In this document: piece after piece, positions 4,708 through 12,139 of the stretch | How positions within the stretch are numbered: the stretch's first letter is position 1 | Layout of the letters: each line of letters starts with the position of its first letter | DNA from: Solirubrobacterales bacterium | Lineage (GTDB): Bacteria; Actinomycetota; Thermoleophilia; Solirubrobacterales; 70-9 | Length of the DNA stretch: 64,000 nt | Assembly: GCA_025936755.1 (NCBI GenBank) | Contig: JAICSS010000003.1 | Span: 44,272-108,271, forward strand | Reading direction: 5' to 3' | Position numbers and translations under genes: made by a program | Notes under the pieces: generated by a model | What the model was told of the DNA's origin: nothing | What the model saw: the letters and a program-made list of their open reading frames with translations, nothing else | The model's database searches: none

Positions 4708-5074
4708 CTCAGCCGCCGTCCTGGGATCGGTTCATGGGGGACTAAGGGGCGAGCACCGCCCTTCTCTCCCCCTCGACGGCGAGCGCAGCTCCCAAAACGC
4801 GACCTTTCCGTCGCCTCGCAGCGCACCCGCTCCCGACCCGGGCTCGGCCAGGCGCATCGAGGGGGCGGGCGCAACCGGGGAAGACCGTTGCCCCGGGGAC
4901 ATAAGTGCCCGAATTTGACAGCGACTGCAACCGAGTAAAGCGGTCGATCTCTTTTACTGCATGTTTTCCTATCGAGATTGGTTCCGACGGACCGTTTTGG
5001 AATACTTGTCTAGTAACTCGGGCGTTCTGCCACCAACGTCTCCCCCGTCCGGGTGAAGAAACGGAGGTCCTCCC

Positions 5075-5725: not shown

Positions 5726-6095
5726 CTAGCCGTCGACCAGGCGGTAGCCGATGCCCCAGCAGTTGACAACGAAGCGGTTGCCCTCGGGGTCGAGTTTGAG
5801 GCGCAGGCGGCTGGCGTGGGAGTCGAGGGTGCGGGTCTTGGAAGGGCCGCGGTAGGCCCAGACCGCATCCAGGAGCTCTTCCTTCGTATAGACCCGGAGG
5901 GGATCCGAGGCGAGGACGCGGAGGAGGGCGAACTCCTTCTTCGCGAGGTGGACCTCGCGATCGCCCACCGTGACCCGGCGGCGCAGCGGGTCGATCACGA
6001 GATCGCCGACGCGGGTGGGCCCTTCGTTGGGTTCCGTGCGGCGCCTGAGGACGGCGCCGATGCGGGCGCGCAGCTCGCCGTAGACGAACGGCTTG
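5726..6095 (-). pseudogene. OmpR-family response regulator, 3' fragment (end of receiver plus winged-helix DNA-binding domain), cut off by the integrated element
   Basis: Begins ...KPFVYGELRARIGAVLRRR, then a Trans_reg_C domain (LAKKEFALLRVL, RTLDSHASRLRLKL, VNCWGIGYRLV). It has no receiver domain of its own. The TTG start in the ORF track lies in element DNA. Confidence 0.85.
6087..6095. repeat. attL crossover core
   Basis: AACGGCTTG, identical to 11787-11795. The bases immediately flanking each copy differ. Confidence 0.8.
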
Positions 6096-6098
6096 CCT

Positions 6099-6149
6099 TT
6101 CAATCATTTGTTTGGCCCCATCCCAATCAGCGACCCAGAGCCAAAATAA
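6099..6149 (+). repeat. Copy 1 of a 51-nt repeat that would encode the alternative recombinase C-terminus after excision
   Basis: In frame with the recombinase across a reconstructed attP: ...NGL PFNHLFGPIPISDPEPK stop. About 80% identical to 7082-7132. Confidence 0.7.
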
Positions 6150-6225
6150 GCTGCTCGTAGCTCCTGCCTCGCACAATGCGGAAGTCCCCGGTCGCTTGGG
6201 CGAGTCGCAACGGTAGCCTCGCCGA

Positions 6226-7068
6226 GTGGCTAGCGACCGCTTTGAATTCCCCGAGACGTTCGATTCCGAACTTGAGATCGGCGACCTGCCCGGCAACAAG
6301 GCGTTCTTCGGCCGCGATGTTCTCGGCGGACTGGTCGGCGGTATCGACGACTACATGCGCCAGCGCCAGGAGCGGTGGAGGCGGCGAGGGTATCGGTCGA
6401 TGGGGCCGGGCCTCCTTGGCACGGCTATGTGGATGGACGATCCCGAGTTCATCGACAAGCTGACCGAACTCTCAGGAGCCTGCGTGGTCGTCACGAAGCA
6501 ACCGAGATCGAAGCGGGACCTTGAGAAGTTCGAGCGCCTGGCGGCACTTAACGAGCAAACCCCAGGGCTTCGCGTCGCAGCGTTCCCCGCCCTCAGCGAC
6601 CTTGCACCCAAGGTAGACGGCAAGCCCCGACTCGTCGGACCATACGACCAAATCGGCGAGGATTCGATACCTACCATCCGCGCGCTCGGATTCCGGCGCA
6701 AGGGGAACCCGCTCGTTCCGATCATGCACGCCAAGCTGGCGATCCTCGGCGAGTTCTGGTGGTACGACGAAGGGGCTCTCGGCGAGGTTGGCGACTTCTA
6801 CGGCTTCACTCCGGCGCGGCTGTGGGTCTCTTCAGCGAACTTCACCCGCCAGTCCCGGCGAAGCCTTGAGTTCGGCTACTGGACCGAGAATGAGGGACTC
6901 CGCGAAGCGGCTTATAGATTCGTTCTGCAGGCGATTCGGTTTTCGGAGTCGCTGGATTCCGCTGCGGACGCGCTTGATCCTGAGTTTGTACCGATCGAGT
7001 TCGATGACGCCGCCATGCTCGAAGCGATCGCCGACATGGAGTTCGAGGACGAGGACTTGGACGAGTAA
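6226..7068 (+). CDS. PLD-superfamily (single HKD-like) putative nuclease with an acidic C-terminal tail
   Basis: IMHAKLAILG (HxK) followed, after an insert, by LWVSSANFT (GSxN-like). Tail is EFEDEDLDE. Only one HKD-like motif, so a dimer would be needed as in Nuc/BfiI. Confidence 0.55.
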   Translation: MASDRFEFPETFDSELEIGDLPGNKAFFGRDVLGGLVGGIDDYMRQRQERWRRRGYRSMGPGLLGTAMWMDDPEFIDKLTELSGACVVVTKQPRSKRDLEKFERLAALNEQTPGLRVAAFPALSDLAPKVDGKPRLVGPYDQIGEDSIPTIRALGFRRKGNPLVPIMHAKLAILGEFWWYDEGALGEVGDFYGFTPARLWVSSANFTRQSRRSLEFGYWTENEGLREAAYRFVLQAIRFSESLDSAADALDPEFVPIEFDDAAMLEAIADMEFEDEDLDE

Positions 7069-7081
7069 TGCGCCCTCGTCC

Positions 7082-7132
7082 TTCTGGCAATTGTTTGGAC
7101 CGATCCCAATCAGCAACGCAGAGCCGAAATAG
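7082..7132 (+). repeat. Copy 2 of the recombinase-tail repeat (relic)
   Basis: Would encode FWQLFGPIPISNAEPK stop. From TTG onward it differs from copy 1 at 6 positions: 3 synonymous, 1 stop-to-stop, 2 non-synonymous. Confidence 0.65.
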
Positions 7133-7248
7133 GCCGCTTTAGGCAGATTCCCCGAATCTGCCTACACCTCCCTTCCTTCCTTTACTCACCCATCAAGCAA
7201 ACCGAGGCCCCTCCGGTGGGGGGGGAAGTTCTCCGCTTCCTCCACGCT

Positions 7249-7283
7249 GTTGGTCCCATGCCGTGACCTAAAGGCAGAAAGAC
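7249..7283. repeat. Left copy of a 35-bp inverted repeat
   Basis: GTTGGTCCCATGCCGTGACCTAAAGGCAGAAAGAC equals the reverse complement of 9683-9717 at 34 of 35 positions. Confidence 0.85.
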
Positions 7284-7302
7284 CTCCGGTCCCTCGTAAA
7301 CC

Positions 7303-7432
7303 CCGAAGCCGCCTCGCTTCCCTGGGCCCCCGCGCTCCTTGCATCTGACCCCGGTCGATCACGAATAGTGAGCGGGTGGGGTCAGATGCAAGGAGCGCCC
7401 TCATTTGGCCCAGGGAAGCGAGGCGGCTTCGG
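7303..7432. repeat. 130-nt long imperfect palindrome (21-bp plus 26-bp perfect stems)
   Basis: Left arm 7303-7352 pairs with right arm 7378-7432. Inner stem GCGCTCCTTGCATCTGACCCC / GGGGTCAGATGCAAGGAGCGC. Outer stem CCGAAGCCGCCTCGCTTCCCTGGGCC / GGCCCAGGGAAGCGAGGCGGCTTCGG. Confidence 0.85.
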
Positions 7433-7519
7433 ACGCTGCAATCGCAGCCCTGTTCGCAGCCTCCCGCGCTTCTTGAAATGCAACCCCGAAAAGTGGCCGA
7501 GCTCCAATAGGCTGCGCCG

Positions 7520-7723
7520 ATGCCCGAGGACGCGAAACGCCAGGCTGCCGCCGAAGCTGTGAAGGCAGTTCAGAAGGAGTTCCTGCGGCAGACGTCCGAA
7601 GCTCGGGCGACTCGCCGCAAGGTCTTCAAAGAAGCTAGGGAGGCGGGGTTGAACCTGCGGGAGATTGGCGAGTTGGCCGGTATCCATCACACGACGGTCG
7701 GCGAAATCATTCGGGGAGGATGA
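7520..7723 (+). CDS. Small helix-turn-helix protein (candidate regulator or recombination directionality factor)
   Basis: 67 aa. C-terminal LNLREIGELAGIHHTTVGEIIRGG resembles a Hin/resolvase-type HTH. Lies inside the element. Confidence 0.55.
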   Translation: MPEDAKRQAAAEAVKAVQKEFLRQTSEARATRRKVFKEAREAGLNLREIGELAGIHHTTVGEIIRGG

Positions 7724-7837
7724 TTTTGGAGGGTTAACCCTCCAAAGCTGCTACGGTAGCGGCGACCAAGAGAAGCGGCCCCCGGCGGTGCGGAAACACC
7801 AACCGGGAGCCTGACCACAAGGAGATGCATCCTCCTC

Positions 7838-8191
7838 ATGGCTAGAGACAACGATATGGGCGGCGGGTCGCTGGTGCCTCTTGACCTTCCCCCGCAGCAC
7901 ATCCCGATCCTGCGCGAACGTCTGACGACCTGGCTGGACGGCGTTCGGGAGGATCTGGAAGCCGTCGACGAGGCACAGGGACTCGATCAGGCCTGGCAGG
8001 AAGCGCGGGCATTTGAGCGGTTGCTAACCGCTCTTGCGACGGGGAAGATTTGCCTTCCCGACGAAGCGGCCAGGACGGCGCTCGAGGTCTCGGCAGCTGC
8101 GCATGACAAGGAGAGCGACTACGCGGACGTAGCTGCAACTCACGATGCGCTTCATGCCCTGCTTGACGCATTGGGGGGTGCCCGCGCTTGA
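7838..8191 (+). CDS. Hypothetical all-helical protein (element cargo)
   Basis: 117-aa ORF. Its stop overlaps the next start. No recognisable motif. Confidence 0.45.
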   Translation: MARDNDMGGGSLVPLDLPPQHIPILRERLTTWLDGVREDLEAVDEAQGLDQAWQEARAFERLLTALATGKICLPDEAARTALEVSAAAHDKESDYADVAATHDALHALLDALGGARA

Positions 8192-8436
8192 TCGCCACCG
8201 ACTTGCGGCTGCAACGGGTCGTGCTGGCACTTGTTCTCCGAGAACATCCGGCAGTTCTTTCGCTGCCGGCGCTGGCCGGCCAGGTTCTCGCGGACCCTCG
8301 CGCCCTCACCGGCAAGGTGGCTCTTGCCCGCGCCCTCCGCGACCTGGACAACGAGGGCTTGGTGTTCAGTGACGGCTCGCATATGCAGCCGAGCCGACCG
8401 GCTATCTACGTCAAGCGTCTGCTGGGGGCCTGCTGA
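8188..8436 (+). CDS. Hypothetical small protein, possibly winged-helix
   Basis: 82 aa. The pattern LQRVVLALVLREHP...ALRDLDNEGLVFSDG resembles a wHTH. Overlapping start and stop codons on both sides. Confidence 0.45.
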   Translation: MIATDLRLQRVVLALVLREHPAVLSLPALAGQVLADPRALTGKVALARALRDLDNEGLVFSDGSHMQPSRPAIYVKRLLGAC

Positions 8437-8924
8437 TGTTGGTTCCGGGGCGCTTCAGCAGCGCCGCGATCAACATCGGCGAGGGCGAGTTGGAGGTCCG
8501 TCTGAGCGACGGCGGCAATTGGCGAGTTCAGGTGCGCTCCACCGATGGGGAAGACTGGCGGCTGCTCTGCCGGGGCCACATTGACGGCACCATCTTTGAG
8601 ACTGCCGGGGCTGACGATGAAGCGCCGATCATGGTCGGCCCGCTACGGGTCGATCCAGCGGCCCGCTGCGTCGAAGTTCACGGCGCTCCGGTGTGCTTGA
8701 CGGCGCGGGAGTTTGAGTTGGTGGCGCTACTTGCTACGGACCCCGGCCGCGTCTTCACCAAGGACGAGTTGTTGCGGGAGGTCTGGAAGCACAGGGCTGG
8801 CGGCAGCAGTCGCACCCTTGACTCACATGCCAGCCGCGTCCGCAACAAACTCCGCAAAGCCGGGGCCGACGGCTTCATAGTCAACTGCTGGCGCGTCGGC
8901 TACATGCTTTGCGGAGATCGCTAG
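8436..8924 (+). CDS. Receiver-less OmpR/PhoB-type winged-helix DNA-binding protein with an unknown 60-aa N-terminal domain
   Basis: LTAREFELVALLA, RTLDSHASRVRNKL and FIVNCWRVGYML form a Trans_reg_C domain. No Asp-pocket receiver motifs upstream of it. Confidence 0.8.
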   Translation: MLVPGRFSSAAINIGEGELEVRLSDGGNWRVQVRSTDGEDWRLLCRGHIDGTIFETAGADDEAPIMVGPLRVDPAARCVEVHGAPVCLTAREFELVALLATDPGRVFTKDELLREVWKHRAGGSSRTLDSHASRVRNKLRKAGADGFIVNCWRVGYMLCGDR

Positions 8925-8967
8925 CTATTTGCATAGCAATTTGATCTGAGGGTGGACCGTTTCGGTC

Positions 8968-9441
8968 TTGAGCATCGTCTTAGGGGTCGATGCTCAAAGG
9001 ATTGAACGGATGCCCGACGGATCGAACGAAATCTATGCGGACGTTGCCGCCCAGCGCAGGCAATTTGCCGTACTCCTGGCGCAGCTACGCGCCGCCGAGC
9101 CGCGTTTCGCGGAAGCGTCGATCCTGCTGCCCAATGAGTATGGCGAGTGGCATGCGGCTGTCTACCTCCTGATTGGTTGCGGGCCGGTCTGGGACAGACT
9201 TGGCCCCCCGATAGTCGCGCAGTGTTCGCTTTCGCCTGTCTTTGAAGAGATGGAAAGCGCTCGGCGTCGCTGGACGAAAGACCAGCGCGCAGCGATGGAA
9301 TGGGCGCTGCACTTCTGGAGGCCGGACAAATACGCGGCCAGCTTTCCGGAGGCGTTCGGGGCGTTCATGTTCACCCGGTGGATCGTCGCCTTGCATCTAC
9401 AGAAGGGTCTCGTTCCGAGGATTCGCATAGATCGGGGCTGA
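8968..9441 (+). CDS. Hypothetical protein (element cargo)
   Basis: 157-aa ORF with coding-like composition and no recognisable motif. Confidence 0.45.
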   Translation: MSIVLGVDAQRIERMPDGSNEIYADVAAQRRQFAVLLAQLRAAEPRFAEASILLPNEYGEWHAAVYLLIGCGPVWDRLGPPIVAQCSLSPVFEEMESARRRWTKDQRAAMEWALHFWRPDKYAASFPEAFGAFMFTRWIVALHLQKGLVPRIRIDRG

Positions 9442-9682
9442 ACCGTGTATGCCGTGCGCTCCCGCCGACCCACCCAGCAAATAGCGCTGCGCCGCTCGGC
9501 AGTCAAGGGCGCGATGCGCCCGACCCCTTTAGGGGTTGACGGCCGAGCGGCGCGGCGCTTCGCTGGCAGGTAGGTCGGCGGCGGTGAAAAAAGGGTCAGC
9601 AGGTTCACTTTGGCCGGGGTGCTAGGCGAACGCCATTAGCGCAATCGGAACCATCACGACGAAAGTAACGATCTTGATCGTT

Positions 9683-9717
9683 GTCTTTCTGCCTTTAGGT
9701 CACGGCATGTGACCAAC
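9683..9717. repeat. Right copy of the 35-bp inverted repeat
   Basis: GTCTTTCTGCCTTTAGGTCACGGCATGTGACCAAC. Contains the internal palindrome GGTCAC-N5-GTGACC. Confidence 0.85.
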
Positions 9718-9719
9718 AG

Positions 9720-9882
9720 TGTCGGAACCAATAGAGAATGTCACCACTTGTTTTCGGTATGTGTAGTGAGAAAAAAATGTGTAGAAAGTTAGGGTGTGTG
9801 TGATTAGTCCAGAAACTTATTCCGCAAAGTGATCTACTTCCCTTTGTATGAAAAGGGAGAACCAACAACAAGTAGGTGAAGT
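9720..9882 (+). promoter_or_regulatory. AT-rich regulatory island upstream of the RHH-like ORF and the recombinase
   Basis: GC is far below the window average. Direct repeat ATGTGTAG at 9759-9766 and 9777-9784, followed by a GTGTGTGTG run. Confidence 0.3.
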
Positions 9883-10179
9883 ATGGAAAGCAGGGAGAAA
9901 CAACAACAAGGAGGAGATAAGCCACTGGTCGCATCCTTCAAGGACTGCGACTCATCAGCCTCGCCGCCACATACCGTCCGGCTGGAGATCATTCCCACGC
10001 ACAGGCAATACATGCAGCTCTGCAATGACCTACGCGAGCTGCGCCGACGCGGGGCCGAGACCAACACGGTCGCCATCATCGACGCGGTTCACGCCGCCAC
10101 TTCGCATAAGATCGAGGCTAGAACTTATAAACGGGCCGAGGGGCGTATGCGCGCCCCCCGGCCCCGCAACAGGAGGTAA
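9883..10179 (+). CDS. Putative ribbon-helix-helix-like small protein upstream of the recombinase
   Basis: TVRLEIIPTHRQYMQLCNDLRELRRRGAETNTVAIIDAVHAA fits a strand-helix-helix pattern. Its stop lies within the recombinase RBS (AGGAGGTAA). Start codon is uncertain. Confidence 0.35.
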   Translation: MESREKQQQGGDKPLVASFKDCDSSASPPHTVRLEIIPTHRQYMQLCNDLRELRRRGAETNTVAIIDAVHAATSHKIEARTYKRAEGRMRAPRPRNRR

Positions 10180-10184
10180 GTCCT

Positions 10185-11804
10185 GTGCCTGATAACCGTA
10201 GCGACCTCGCCATTCTCTACGCGGCGAAGTCAACGAAAGACGAGAAGGGAAGCATCCCCACGCAGCTAGGGGACACGGAGATTGCTGCGCTCGCGGAAGG
10301 CCGCGCTATTGCCGAGCGCTATGCCGACGAGAACGAGAGCGCCTATCACGGCAACCGTGGCCCCAAACTTGAAGCTGCGCTAGATCACGCGGAGCGGATC
10401 GGAGCCGAGCTTTGGGTCCAACACTCCGACCGGCTCGCCCGCGGCGACGGCGTGAAGGCCCGCCATCTTGTCCAGCTTGTCTTTGAGGCCAAGGCTCGCG
10501 GTATCCGCCTGCGCTCGGTCGAAGACGATGCCTCGCTCGAAAACGTGGTGATGGCGGCGGTGATGGGCGAGCGCAACACCGAGGATTCCCGCCGAAAGGC
10601 GGCGGCGGTGAAAGCCGGTATGGAGCGCAAGCGCCAGCGTGGCGAATACATCGGCCACCGCCCCTACGGCTACAAGTGGGAGCGTGATGAGAAGGATGAT
10701 CGCCAGATCGTTCCCGACCCCGTCCAAGCCCCGCTCATCCGGCGCATCTTCAAGGAATACCTTGCGGGTGAATCTCAGAAGGCAATCGCCCGCAATCTCA
10801 CTCGGGACAACGTGCAGACCCCGCGCGGGGGAACTCGGTGGTATCCCGGAACCGTCCGTCAAATCCTGGCCCGCCCGCTCTATGCGGGCTGGATTCCCGA
10901 CGGGAAAGACGGAGTCCTAGAGGGCAACCATGAGCCGCTAATCACCCGCGAGGAATGGGAACAAACGGAAGACTTGCGAAAGGCAAAAGCTCGCGGTCCT
11001 GGTCGTGGTCGGCCTGTGGCGGGGCGGCACCTTTTCCGCAAGGGCTTCCTTCGTTGCGGGGCCTGCGGCGGCGCTCTAATTCCTCGGACGATCCCCAATC
11101 GAGCAAATCCGCCCCGTGAAGTCTATGAATGCTTCACCCGGCATTGCGACCTTGACGGGTGTTCGCAGGAGCCGATCCTGCGCGTCGAAATCGACGGCGC
11201 AGTCCTCGGCTACTTTGAGCAAGTCGGGCTCGACTTGGACGCTACGCGGGACGAACTGGCGGCAGCGATGGACAGAAAGATCGAAGAGACCCGAGCCCTT
11301 CTGAGGGCGGCCCAAAAGGACGCGGCGACCGCTGCCGATCGACTCGCCCGCGTCAAGAGCGACTACCTGAGCGGCGAGTTGACCGCTGCCGAGTGGCGGG
11401 AGTTGCGAGCGGAGCTTGAGCCCAGCACCGTCGCCGCCTCTGCAGAGGTGGAGCGCCTAGCCGAGCAACTTCAGACTCACGAAAGCGACGGCGCCGTTGA
11501 GGTCGCGGAGCGCGAGGTATATGACTTGCTTCGGCAGATTCGGGAGACCGTGACCGGCTCGGCGGCGGATACCGCAGGAGCCCAGGCGGTGAGCGCGACG
11601 CTTCTTCGACTCTTCGACCACTTCACGTACCACGTAGGGATTCCCGAGCGGGCAAATGTCGAGTTGGTCGAAGCTCATAGCTGGATCGAGCCGACGATCA
11701 AGCCCGACCCGATTCACGGCCGCGACGATGAAGATTTCCCCCTCCCGTCCCGCGAACCGCTTGGCCAAGCCGCAAACAAAGGGCACAACGGCTTGGTGAG
11801 GTAA
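10185..11804 (+). CDS. Large serine recombinase (integrase)
   Basis: Resolvase catalytic domain (AILYAAKSTKDEKGSIPTQ, HSDRLARG), recombinase domain, zinc ribbon CGACGG...C...C, and a coiled coil. GTG start with AGGAGG. The last 3 codons and the stop lie in host DNA beyond the att core. Confidence 0.92.
   Translation: MPDNRSDLAILYAAKSTKDEKGSIPTQLGDTEIAALAEGRAIAERYADENESAYHGNRGPKLEAALDHAERIGAELWVQHSDRLARGDGVKARHLVQLVFEAKARGIRLRSVEDDASLENVVMAAVMGERNTEDSRRKAAAVKAGMERKRQRGEYIGHRPYGYKWERDEKDDRQIVPDPVQAPLIRRIFKEYLAGESQKAIARNLTRDNVQTPRGGTRWYPGTVRQILARPLYAGWIPDGKDGVLEGNHEPLITREEWEQTEDLRKAKARGPGRGRPVAGRHLFRKGFLRCGACGGALIPRTIPNRANPPREVYECFTRHCDLDGCSQEPILRVEIDGAVLGYFEQVGLDLDATRDELAAAMDRKIEETRALLRAAQKDAATAADRLARVKSDYLSGELTAAEWRELRAELEPSTVAASAEVERLAEQLQTHESDGAVEVAEREVYDLLRQIRETVTGSAADTAGAQAVSATLLRLFDHFTYHVGIPERANVELVEAHSWIEPTIKPDPIHGRDDEDFPLPSREPLGQAANKGHNGLVR
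11787..11795. repeat. attR crossover core
   Basis: AACGGCTTG. It lies inside both the recombinase 3' end and the response-regulator K-P codons on the opposite strand. Confidence 0.8.
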
Positions 11805-12139
11805 TCGTCGGCGCCGGAGTCGAGGCCGCGGACCTTGTCGGTGCCGCCGCCGCGGCCGGTGAGGACGATCACCGGCAGCCGCGGATCGAAGCGGGAGTCG
11901 ACGCCGTCGGCGTCGCGGATCTCGCGCAGGACGTCGAGGCCGGAGGCGTCCGGCAGCGAGAGGTCCAGCAGCAACAGGTCGGGATGGTTGTACCGGCACA
12001 GCCGCAGCGCGTCGGAGGCGCTGGGCGCGGGCATGACGCCGAAGCGATCGGCGGCGAGGTGCTCGCAGAGCAGGTCGAGGGTGACGTGGTCGTCCTCGCA
12101 GACGACGAGGCTGGCTATCTCTTCTCGTTGGGGGAGCAT
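11787..12139 (-). pseudogene. OmpR-family response regulator, 5' fragment (complete receiver domain), interrupted by the element
   Basis: VVCEDD, LLLLDLSLPD, VIVLTGR and ADDYLTKP give every receiver signature. After KP the frame runs into element DNA (LCPLFAAW...). Confidence 0.85.

Follow-up and report, generated by a model that had tools for sequence, protein, structure and literature searches.

A repeat pair inside an integrated element

The analysed sequence is a 64,000-nt stretch of a Solirubrobacterales bacterium (GCA_025936755.1, contig JAICSS010000003.1, positions 44,272–108,271 of the forward strand), hereafter called the window. It harbours an integrated element of 5.7 kb (6087–11795), in which a set of core genes is bracketed by a pair of long inverted repeats. 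The G+C content of the window is about 72% and is lower in the stretch from about 5 to 12 kb. A repeat search delimited the two arms at 7244–7283 and 9683–9722. They are 40 nt long, complementary at 38 of the 40 positions (95%) and separated by 2399 nt, and their sequence is CCATGCCGTGACCTAAAGGCAGAAAGAC. A 37-mer search allowing up to three mismatches detected two copies in the 64 kb, with none expected from 100 shuffles. The features of the element are the following.

7244–7283, plus strand: IR-L (inverted repeat, left arm), 19 nt before the hairpin HP1; homologous arms stand at the equivalent position in 14 relatives
9683–9722, minus strand: IR-R (inverted repeat, right arm), 97 nt past the hairpin hp2 and 160 nt upstream of the small open reading frame (ORF) and integrase genes
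7520–9441, plus strand: core operon, with genes for a helix-turn-helix (HTH) protein (7520–7723), a 117-aa protein (7838–8191), an 82-aa protein (8188–8436), a protein consisting of a Trans_reg_C domain only (8436–8924) and a 143-aa protein (9010–9441)
7303–7432, plus strand: HP1, a near-perfect 130-nt hairpin just inside IR-L, with a fold of −121 kcal/mol (z −12.9)
9462–9585, plus strand: hp2, a long branched stem that contains two inner hairpins, just past the last core gene, with a fold of −100.8 kcal/mol (z −8.1)
7075–7240, plus strand: block 1, in which a degenerate copy of the integrase P' arm is followed by a conserved 130-nt non-coding block, always directly outside IR-L
9622–9678, minus strand: candidate hydrophobic micro-ORF (IKIVTFVVMVPIALMAFA*) starting at the inner edge of IR-R, with an uncertain start codon
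9883–11804, plus strand: 98-aa ORF (9883–10179) and large serine integrase gene (10185–11804), downstream of IR-R on the same strand
6087–6095, no strand assigned: attL crossover core AACGGCTTG, where the element meets the 3' part of the host regulator gene (5726–6103, minus)
11787–11795, no strand assigned: attR crossover core AACGGCTTG, where the element meets the 5' part of the host regulator gene (11714–12139, minus)

The original prediction described a near-perfect inverted repeat of 34 out of 35 positions (7249–7283 and 9683–9717) with weaker similarity extending outwards; both are contained within the 40-nt arms. The five ORFs on one strand that it placed between the repeats (HTH, two small ones, Trans_reg_C and a last one) are all present. 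The last of these spans 8968–9441, and the start at ATG 9010, which yields 143 aa and was called in two metagenome-assembled genomes (MAGs), is more likely. An internal palindrome, GGTCAC-N5-GTGACC, had been claimed for each copy. Only the right arm has it in perfect form; the sequence of the left arm is GGTCCC-N5-GTGACC, and most relatives lack the palindrome in their homologous repeats. The general proposal that the pair is a non-random feature within a mobile element, bracketing a discrete module, was borne out.

The element interrupts an OmpR-type response-regulator gene on the minus strand, whose receiver domain lies at 11714–12139 and whose Trans_reg_C domain lies at 5726–6103. Joining the host flanks in silico restored an intact regulator ORF of 238 aa, reading ...DDYLTKPFVYGEL... 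across the junction. The 5.7-kb element was inserted into the regulator gene by a large serine integrase. This integrase has 539 aa and its gene ends at attR, and the reconstructed attP displays an imperfect dyad around GGC-TT-GCC (15 of 24 positions symmetric). The possibility that the repeat itself serves as attachment site of the large serine integrase was considered and rejected: the true cores AACGGCTTG are found at both junctions, and the repeat pair is unrelated to them in sequence and cannot be the attachment site since it lies inside the integrated element.

Co-variation of the arms across the element family

Related loci (designated here by L numbers) were gathered via the integrase, via an invariant 20-mer of HP1 and via the conserved 143-aa protein. 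Integrase relatives are numerous in Solirubrobacterales MAGs and in soil metagenomes, and a scan of viral contigs with the HP1 20-mer gave no match. The related elements share the order attachment site, block 1 (about 130 nt, conserved), left arm, HP1, optional cargo, HTH gene, gene for an 82/99-aa protein and variable genes in their left half, followed in the right half by the gene for the 143-aa protein, hp2, about 65–110 variable nt, right arm, small ORF, integrase gene and attachment site. Three integration modules were distinguished. The serine integrase of the window, which targets the regulator gene, is shared with L009, L003 and L121; a second lineage of serine integrases (45–48% identical) is found in L057, L027, L122 and L127; and a tyrosine integrase is present in L105 (together with a Xis-like gene), L120 and L125. 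Wherever an integrase gene is visible downstream of the right arm, it stands directly beyond that arm and is co-directional with the operon (11 of 11 elements). No description of this element family or of such a repeat pair was found in the literature. The family is one of undescribed integrative elements of 4.7–10 kb in Solirubrobacterales.

An exact look-up of the integrase and the 143-aa protein of the window retrieved only two MAG contigs, both from the same organism. These are uninformative on the orientation of the segment between the arms because their breaks fall inside palindromes and not at the repeat. One of them (L001) begins at window position 7360, the centre of HP1, and the other (L002) opens, at positions 1–61, with 61 nt folding back at the terminator that follows the HTH gene, both being assembly artefacts.

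Repeat pairs were found at homologous positions in 15 elements, namely that of the window and 14 relatives from Solirubrobacterales genomes and metagenomes, always with one arm per strand and with a spacing of 2124–6833 nt. The sequence of the arms diverges between elements, reading CCATGCCGCACAAGAAGAGCAGAAAGAC in L003, CCCCATCCCGCGCAAGAAAGGAAGAAAGAC in L092, CCCCATTCCTTGACACACATAGAGAGCTT in L103 and CCCCGTCCTTGACAAAAACTGAGA in L127. Measured in a 26-nt register, the identity of the two arms averages 0.93 within elements versus 0.60 between elements, and none of 100,000 random re-pairings reached the observed mean. Both arms carry the same non-majority base in 82 cells and differ from each other in 26. 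The boundaries of the repeat are sharp on both sides. A mismatched pair was detected in L108 only, where a TTGACA-like left arm (oriented positions ~2540–2570) is combined with a right arm of the GCGCAA type (~4760–4790). This element is degraded, with a truncated 143-aa gene and without the HTH and 82-aa genes. The absence of mixed pairs from intact elements, despite conserved and recombination-prone flanking blocks, indicates that matched arms are selected for, or actively homogenised. As a co-evolving pair of cis elements, the arms delimit the conserved core of this small integrative element on both sides, and, from the sequences compared, selection appears to act on their mutual complementarity and not on any particular sequence.

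A third copy of the repeat was observed in L122 (8846–8877), 143 nt beyond the right arm on its right side and some 40 nt ahead of the integrase operon. This copy has direct orientation relative to the left arm, and together with the right arm it makes up a local inverted repeat; the other elements contain no third copy.

The original prediction listed terminal repeats of a nested non-autonomous cassette among its options. The arms are indeed perfect repeats of short length with sharp boundaries, and a gene set lies between them, as with the ends of a transposon or of a miniature inverted-repeat transposable element. The absence of a target-site duplication, noted before, was confirmed (the flanks of the arms read ...TTCCTCC|ACGCTG and CAGTGT|CGGAACC). 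Moreover, no transposase domain is encoded between the arms, only two copies exist in the window, the viral collection yielded none, and across about 45 loci the unit was never encountered at an unrelated site or outside its fixed slot between block 1 and the integrase region. A transposon-end origin is thus rejected and given hardly any credence; the attachment-site reading is rejected as well.

The type of repeat was compared with five conserved element proteins, the HTH, 82-aa, 143-aa and 98-aa proteins and the integrase, and was found to be decoupled from all of them. The window and L009 share the repeat at only 55% identity between their HTH proteins and 42% between their 82/99-aa proteins, and without DNA similarity in their middle genes. 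Conversely, L009 and L003 have HTH proteins that are 91% identical and repeats that differ. Another repeat type is found in L093 and L112, each with an 82-aa protein of 98% identity, and in L114, with an HTH protein of 86% identity. In L057 the repeat of the window, with one change mirrored in both arms, stands beside an integrase of 48% identity. The repeat pair is retained with two serine-integrase lineages and with the tyrosine integrase. The suggestion that the repeats are two copies of a dimer-binding operator found little support here, as the internal palindrome is not conserved and the repeat type follows none of the five proteins; an operator co-evolving with one of them is disfavoured.

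The first option of the original prediction was an invertible segment, a recombinase-driven switch of the operon. In this scenario homology-dependent recombination or an unidentified invertase would flip the 2.4-kb core, and gene conversion would keep the arms identical. The layout resembles the G segment of phage Mu, with a serine recombinase gene beside a segment flanked by inverted repeats, and conversion would explain both the concerted evolution of the arms and the variable length of the repeat (27–58 nt). Comparing orientations among related elements, which had been proposed as a check, gave a single orientation: it is identical in all 15 complete elements and in every partial contig showing block 1 or its right end beside HP1. 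The arms are not conserved in the manner of a recombinase site. The adjacent recombinase has its own terminal attachment sites and is exchanged for unrelated integrases in relatives, the pair being kept beside three unrelated integrase modules. Because the arms are identical, an inversion would leave intact any signal spanning them, including a promoter or an ORF across the right arm. Arms of 27–45 bp are furthermore poor substrates for RecA, which also counts against inversion. An inversion switch is disfavoured, and we regard even a rare inversion with gene conversion as improbable.

Plus-strand bias of the hairpins and the possible pairing of the arms

Two large hairpins accompany the arms throughout the family. 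HP1 is 85–96% identical across the family, while the proteins of the same elements are only about 50% identical. Among its 52 pairs, five show compensatory changes and two G.U pairs are invariant. All four one-sided changes in HP1 yield G.U pairs on the plus strand, which on the minus strand are A.C mismatches. The second hairpin, hp2, is likewise conserved in the family alignment, and its one-sided changes lead to G.U in about 16 cases on the plus strand versus about 7 on the minus strand. From these G.U patterns, HP1 and hp2 look like structures of a single plus strand, either RNA or plus-strand single-stranded DNA (ssDNA). Searches against Rfam gave sub-threshold matches only, to models of microRNA precursors and small RNAs (generic hairpins), and HP1 has no Rfam family. 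An origin of transfer, a clt site or another ssDNA signal is possible for HP1, given its GACCCCGG motif. The approximately 150 nt just inside the right arm fold no better than shuffled sequence (z −0.3).

As a tentative proposal, somewhat ahead of its competitors in our judgement and still well short of an even chance, the plus-strand copies of the two arms would pair as RNA, giving a duplex for processing or antisense action between core operon and integrase genes. One transcript would cover the left arm along with the neighbouring HP1, and the right arm would be part of a transcript leaving the core operon, past hp2, towards the integrase genes. Pairing in cis would create a long-range processing stem around the core operon, in the style of rRNA operons, with HP1 and hp2 as protective ends. 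Pairing in trans would let an antisense RNA made of the left arm and HP1 act on the transcript running from the operon to the integrase gene. Either way a perfect duplex of 27–45 bp would result, long enough for RNase III. The duplex would set apart or gate the integrase part of the message and leave the core mRNA capped by two large hairpins. We infer the transcripts, the pairing of the arms and any cleavage from the observed features. Pairing of RNA seems the most economical explanation because complementarity is kept free of sequence, the edges are sharp, the repeat is independent of the tested proteins and integrase types, the orientation is constant, and a co-directional integrase gene lies beyond the right arm.

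Several points weigh against this proposal. In the window, the region upstream of the left arm yielded no canonical promoter, block 1 containing only a weak −10-like TAGGCC, and HP1 with its −121 kcal/mol could itself stop transcription. The motif TAGGCT is conserved 6 nt before the first core ATG, consistent with a predicted leaderless promoter for this gene, so that the left arm need not be part of the operon mRNA. The approximately ten clear mismatches between arms, few as these events are, show no bias towards G.U on the plus strand. Pairing across 2.1–6.8 kb of translated mRNA is kinetically demanding. Finally, the right arm forms the −35 element and spacer of a predicted minus-strand promoter in seven relatives, and in the repeat type of the window it overlaps the start region of the minus-strand micro-ORF. 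Other grounds for conservation of the right arm are therefore conceivable, which still leave the matching left arm unexplained.

The promoter-like signal was found in all seven C-type right arms, C types being elements with TTGACA in their arms. On the minus strand these read TTGAC(A/G) or TTGATG, followed after 17–18 nt by TAnnnT, with the −10 element just inside the repeat and variable in sequence (TAAGCT, TACCCT, TACGGT, TAAAGT, TACAGT). A promoter scan of L127 returned the right-arm promoter as the only match in 800 nt, with 0.1 expected. In L122, L125 and L027 the right arm is preceded on the minus strand by a terminator, a hairpin followed by a T-rich tract. Twin promoters were considered and rejected, as no left arm of any element has a −10 element at the right distance. 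The window-type and B-type arms consist of CCCATGCC, a purine tract and AGAAAGAC(ATG), and contain poor −35 hexamers (GTGACC, GCGCAA) and no canonical −10.

These signals suggest another explanation, in which the arms are twin protein sites or promoter elements for a factor outside the core, such as RNA polymerase or a regulator of the host or of a helper element; the right arm would then supply the upstream half of an inward promoter, with the left arm as a promoter-less decoy or looping partner. The seven C-type arms and the scan match in L127 agree with this, as do the three minus-strand terminators and the third copy of L122, 40 nt upstream of the integrase operon. A factor encoded by a helper would also explain why the repeat type follows no protein of the element. 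Against it, perfect identity over 27–45 nt, including a fast-evolving purine-rich spacer, far exceeds the usual needs of a protein site, and neither the poor −35 and missing −10 of the window-type and B-type arms, nor the lack of any left-arm −10, nor the non-conserved palindrome fits such sites. We consider twin sites unlikely, though by no means negligible.

A further alternative is antisense control of the type I toxin–antitoxin kind, in which a leftward transcript of the left arm would be an antisense RNA perfectly complementary to the start region of the minus-strand micro-ORF mRNA at the right arm. The hydrophobic micro-ORF at the inner edge of the right arm (A/B-type) is conserved, its motif ALMAFA/ALVAF recurring in nine elements with mostly synonymous variation (pairwise differences by codon position 24/34/49). 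A local hairpin sequesters GAAAG and shows a compensatory change between the window and L113, and a lethal effect of mismatch would explain why intact elements have no mismatched arms. On the other side, the start codons are inconsistent across elements, and stops or frame changes often intervene between arm and peptide, the window having TGA as its third codon. To the right of the left arm, the window showed no leftward promoter, and HP1 is selected on the plus strand. The predicted C-type transcript would start downstream of the arm, so that the arm would not be part of that mRNA, and L108 retains an intact peptide ORF despite its mismatched arms. Such a control is, in our estimation, rather improbable.

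Since the right arm overlaps different minus-strand signals in different lineages and the left arm always mirrors it, the match itself seems to be what is selected. Returning to the pairing of the arms as RNA, a more speculative version would make them a specificity code, with an own matched pair for each lineage and a left-arm RNA scaffolded by HP1 which gates integrase expression or immunity. We regard this version as doubtful. If it were true, the fast co-evolution of the pair would define incompatibility groups without a protein repressor. The pair could also sense excision, since only across attP does the left arm adjoin the integrase gene.

Known systems and accessory features

Among known systems, the pattern is, by analogy, closest to the processing stems of rRNA operons, lambda sib and the RNA immunity of P4 and P1, and differs from all of them in distance and context. 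The RNase III stems around 16S and 23S rRNA and the early mRNA sites of T7 are similar in that a transcription unit is enclosed by complementary stretches of one strand which lie kilobases apart, and the rRNA stems also evolve by compensation, their sequence being free while complementarity is kept. Here, in contrast, the arms enclose a protein-coding operon of a mobile element, and the duplex that they would form is perfect over 27–45 bp. In lambda sib, an RNase III-sensitive structure controls the int mRNA, and its effect depends on integration since att splits the circle; likewise, it is only in the excised circle, across attP, that the left arm has the integrase gene as its neighbour. The likeness is one of position alone, since sib is one local hairpin downstream of int and not a distant repeat pair.

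In the immunity systems of P4 (CI RNA with seqA, seqB and seqC) and P1/P7 (c4 RNA), co-varying short complementary repeats set the specificity without a protein repressor. The resemblance extends to one repeat residing in a stable structured RNA and to a small, satellite-like integrative element. The repeats of P4, however, lie within a few hundred nt of one transcript and act by premature termination, whereas the arms described here are 2.1–6.8 kb apart. The serine invertases (Gin of the Mu G segment, Cin of the P1 C segment, Hin of Salmonella) share with the element inverted repeats of about 30 bp that flank a kilobase-scale segment with a serine recombinase adjacent; they differ in that the element has a large serine integrase with its own attachment sites, variable repeats, tyrosine integrases in relatives and one orientation. 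The operators OL/OR and the nutL/nutR sites of lambda are inverted cis sites about 2.4 kb apart which bracket regulatory genes and differ between related elements. These lambdoid sites co-vary with the repressor or the N protein, whereas the arms follow none of the tested element proteins.

If the arms work by matching, integration or immunity would be controlled by a nucleic-acid code instead of a repressor protein, for which P4 and P1 are among the few precedents. Such a code would sit in a family that swaps integrases freely, that carries two unusually conserved structured non-coding elements (HP1 and hp2), and of which one lineage splits a two-component response-regulator gene beside a pilus/secretion locus.

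That regulator gene adjoins a histidine kinase gene and genes similar to those of type II secretion and Tad systems. The same gene is targeted by related elements, including the far larger L006 with SLT and DUF3560 genes. The receiver-less Trans_reg_C protein of the element (8436–8924) is 47% identical to the DNA-binding domain of the disrupted regulator (5726–6103; BLASTP 9e-31), and a protein of equal domain and size is encoded at the same position in L120 (tyrosine integrase) and L127 (second serine lineage). Searches of the module proteins with Pfam, PHROGs and PADLOC matched only the HTH and Trans_reg_C proteins. The AlphaFold2 model of the conserved 143-aa protein was all-helical with a confidence score (pLDDT) of 57, too poor for fold comparison.

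Within block 1, a perfect palindrome, GCAGATTC-CCC-GAATCTGC, was observed at 7143–7161 between TTAGGC-like and TACACC-like hexamers. The layout of palindrome (GCAGATTC-N3-GAATCTGC) and hexamers is that of an operator in a promoter. Window-type and B-type elements conserve the palindrome, and in others it has degenerated. A candidate minus-strand terminator in block 1, past the left arm, was rejected, its hairpin being weak, not conserved in the window type and close to shuffled sequence (fold z −0.8). The inner hairpins of hp2 are GGGCGC-N3-GCGCCC and CCCC-TTTA-GGGG. The core of hp2 recurs in L091 (3867–3949) and L106 (218–300), about 5.7 kb from another HP1, with a different outer stem and flanks.

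The integrase P' arm and the start of block 1 are doubled as a direct repeat of 64 nt (6092–6155 and 7075–7138, 78% identity). The two copies flank a single ORF of 280 aa (6226–7068) with an HKD-like motif (HAKLAILGE...SSANFT) and no family match. This 1-kb insert looks like the remnant of a second, tandemly accreted element, because L009 and L003 do not have it.

Variable cargo occupies the slot between HP1 and the HTH gene (L121 5724–6401; L122 3678–6470; L126 3111–5300; L127 1047–5260; L125 3157–5289). In several relatives it includes defence-type genes such as lambda Ea47-like, HEPN AbiU2, PycTM with its neighbours, and HNH genes, and the element family may act as a small carrier of defence genes. 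Other serine-integrase elements of the same order (L034, L021, L025, L042, L050, L066, L022) contain long inverted repeats of 70–480 nt. In L034 the repeats lie at 6007–6231/9296–9520 and 9517–9587/11513–11583, with a similar picture in the other six. Taken together, such repeats represent an inverted attP-like copy immediately upstream of the integrase gene. These long repeats are a separate phenomenon and may stem from integrase-mediated inversion or from nested insertion.

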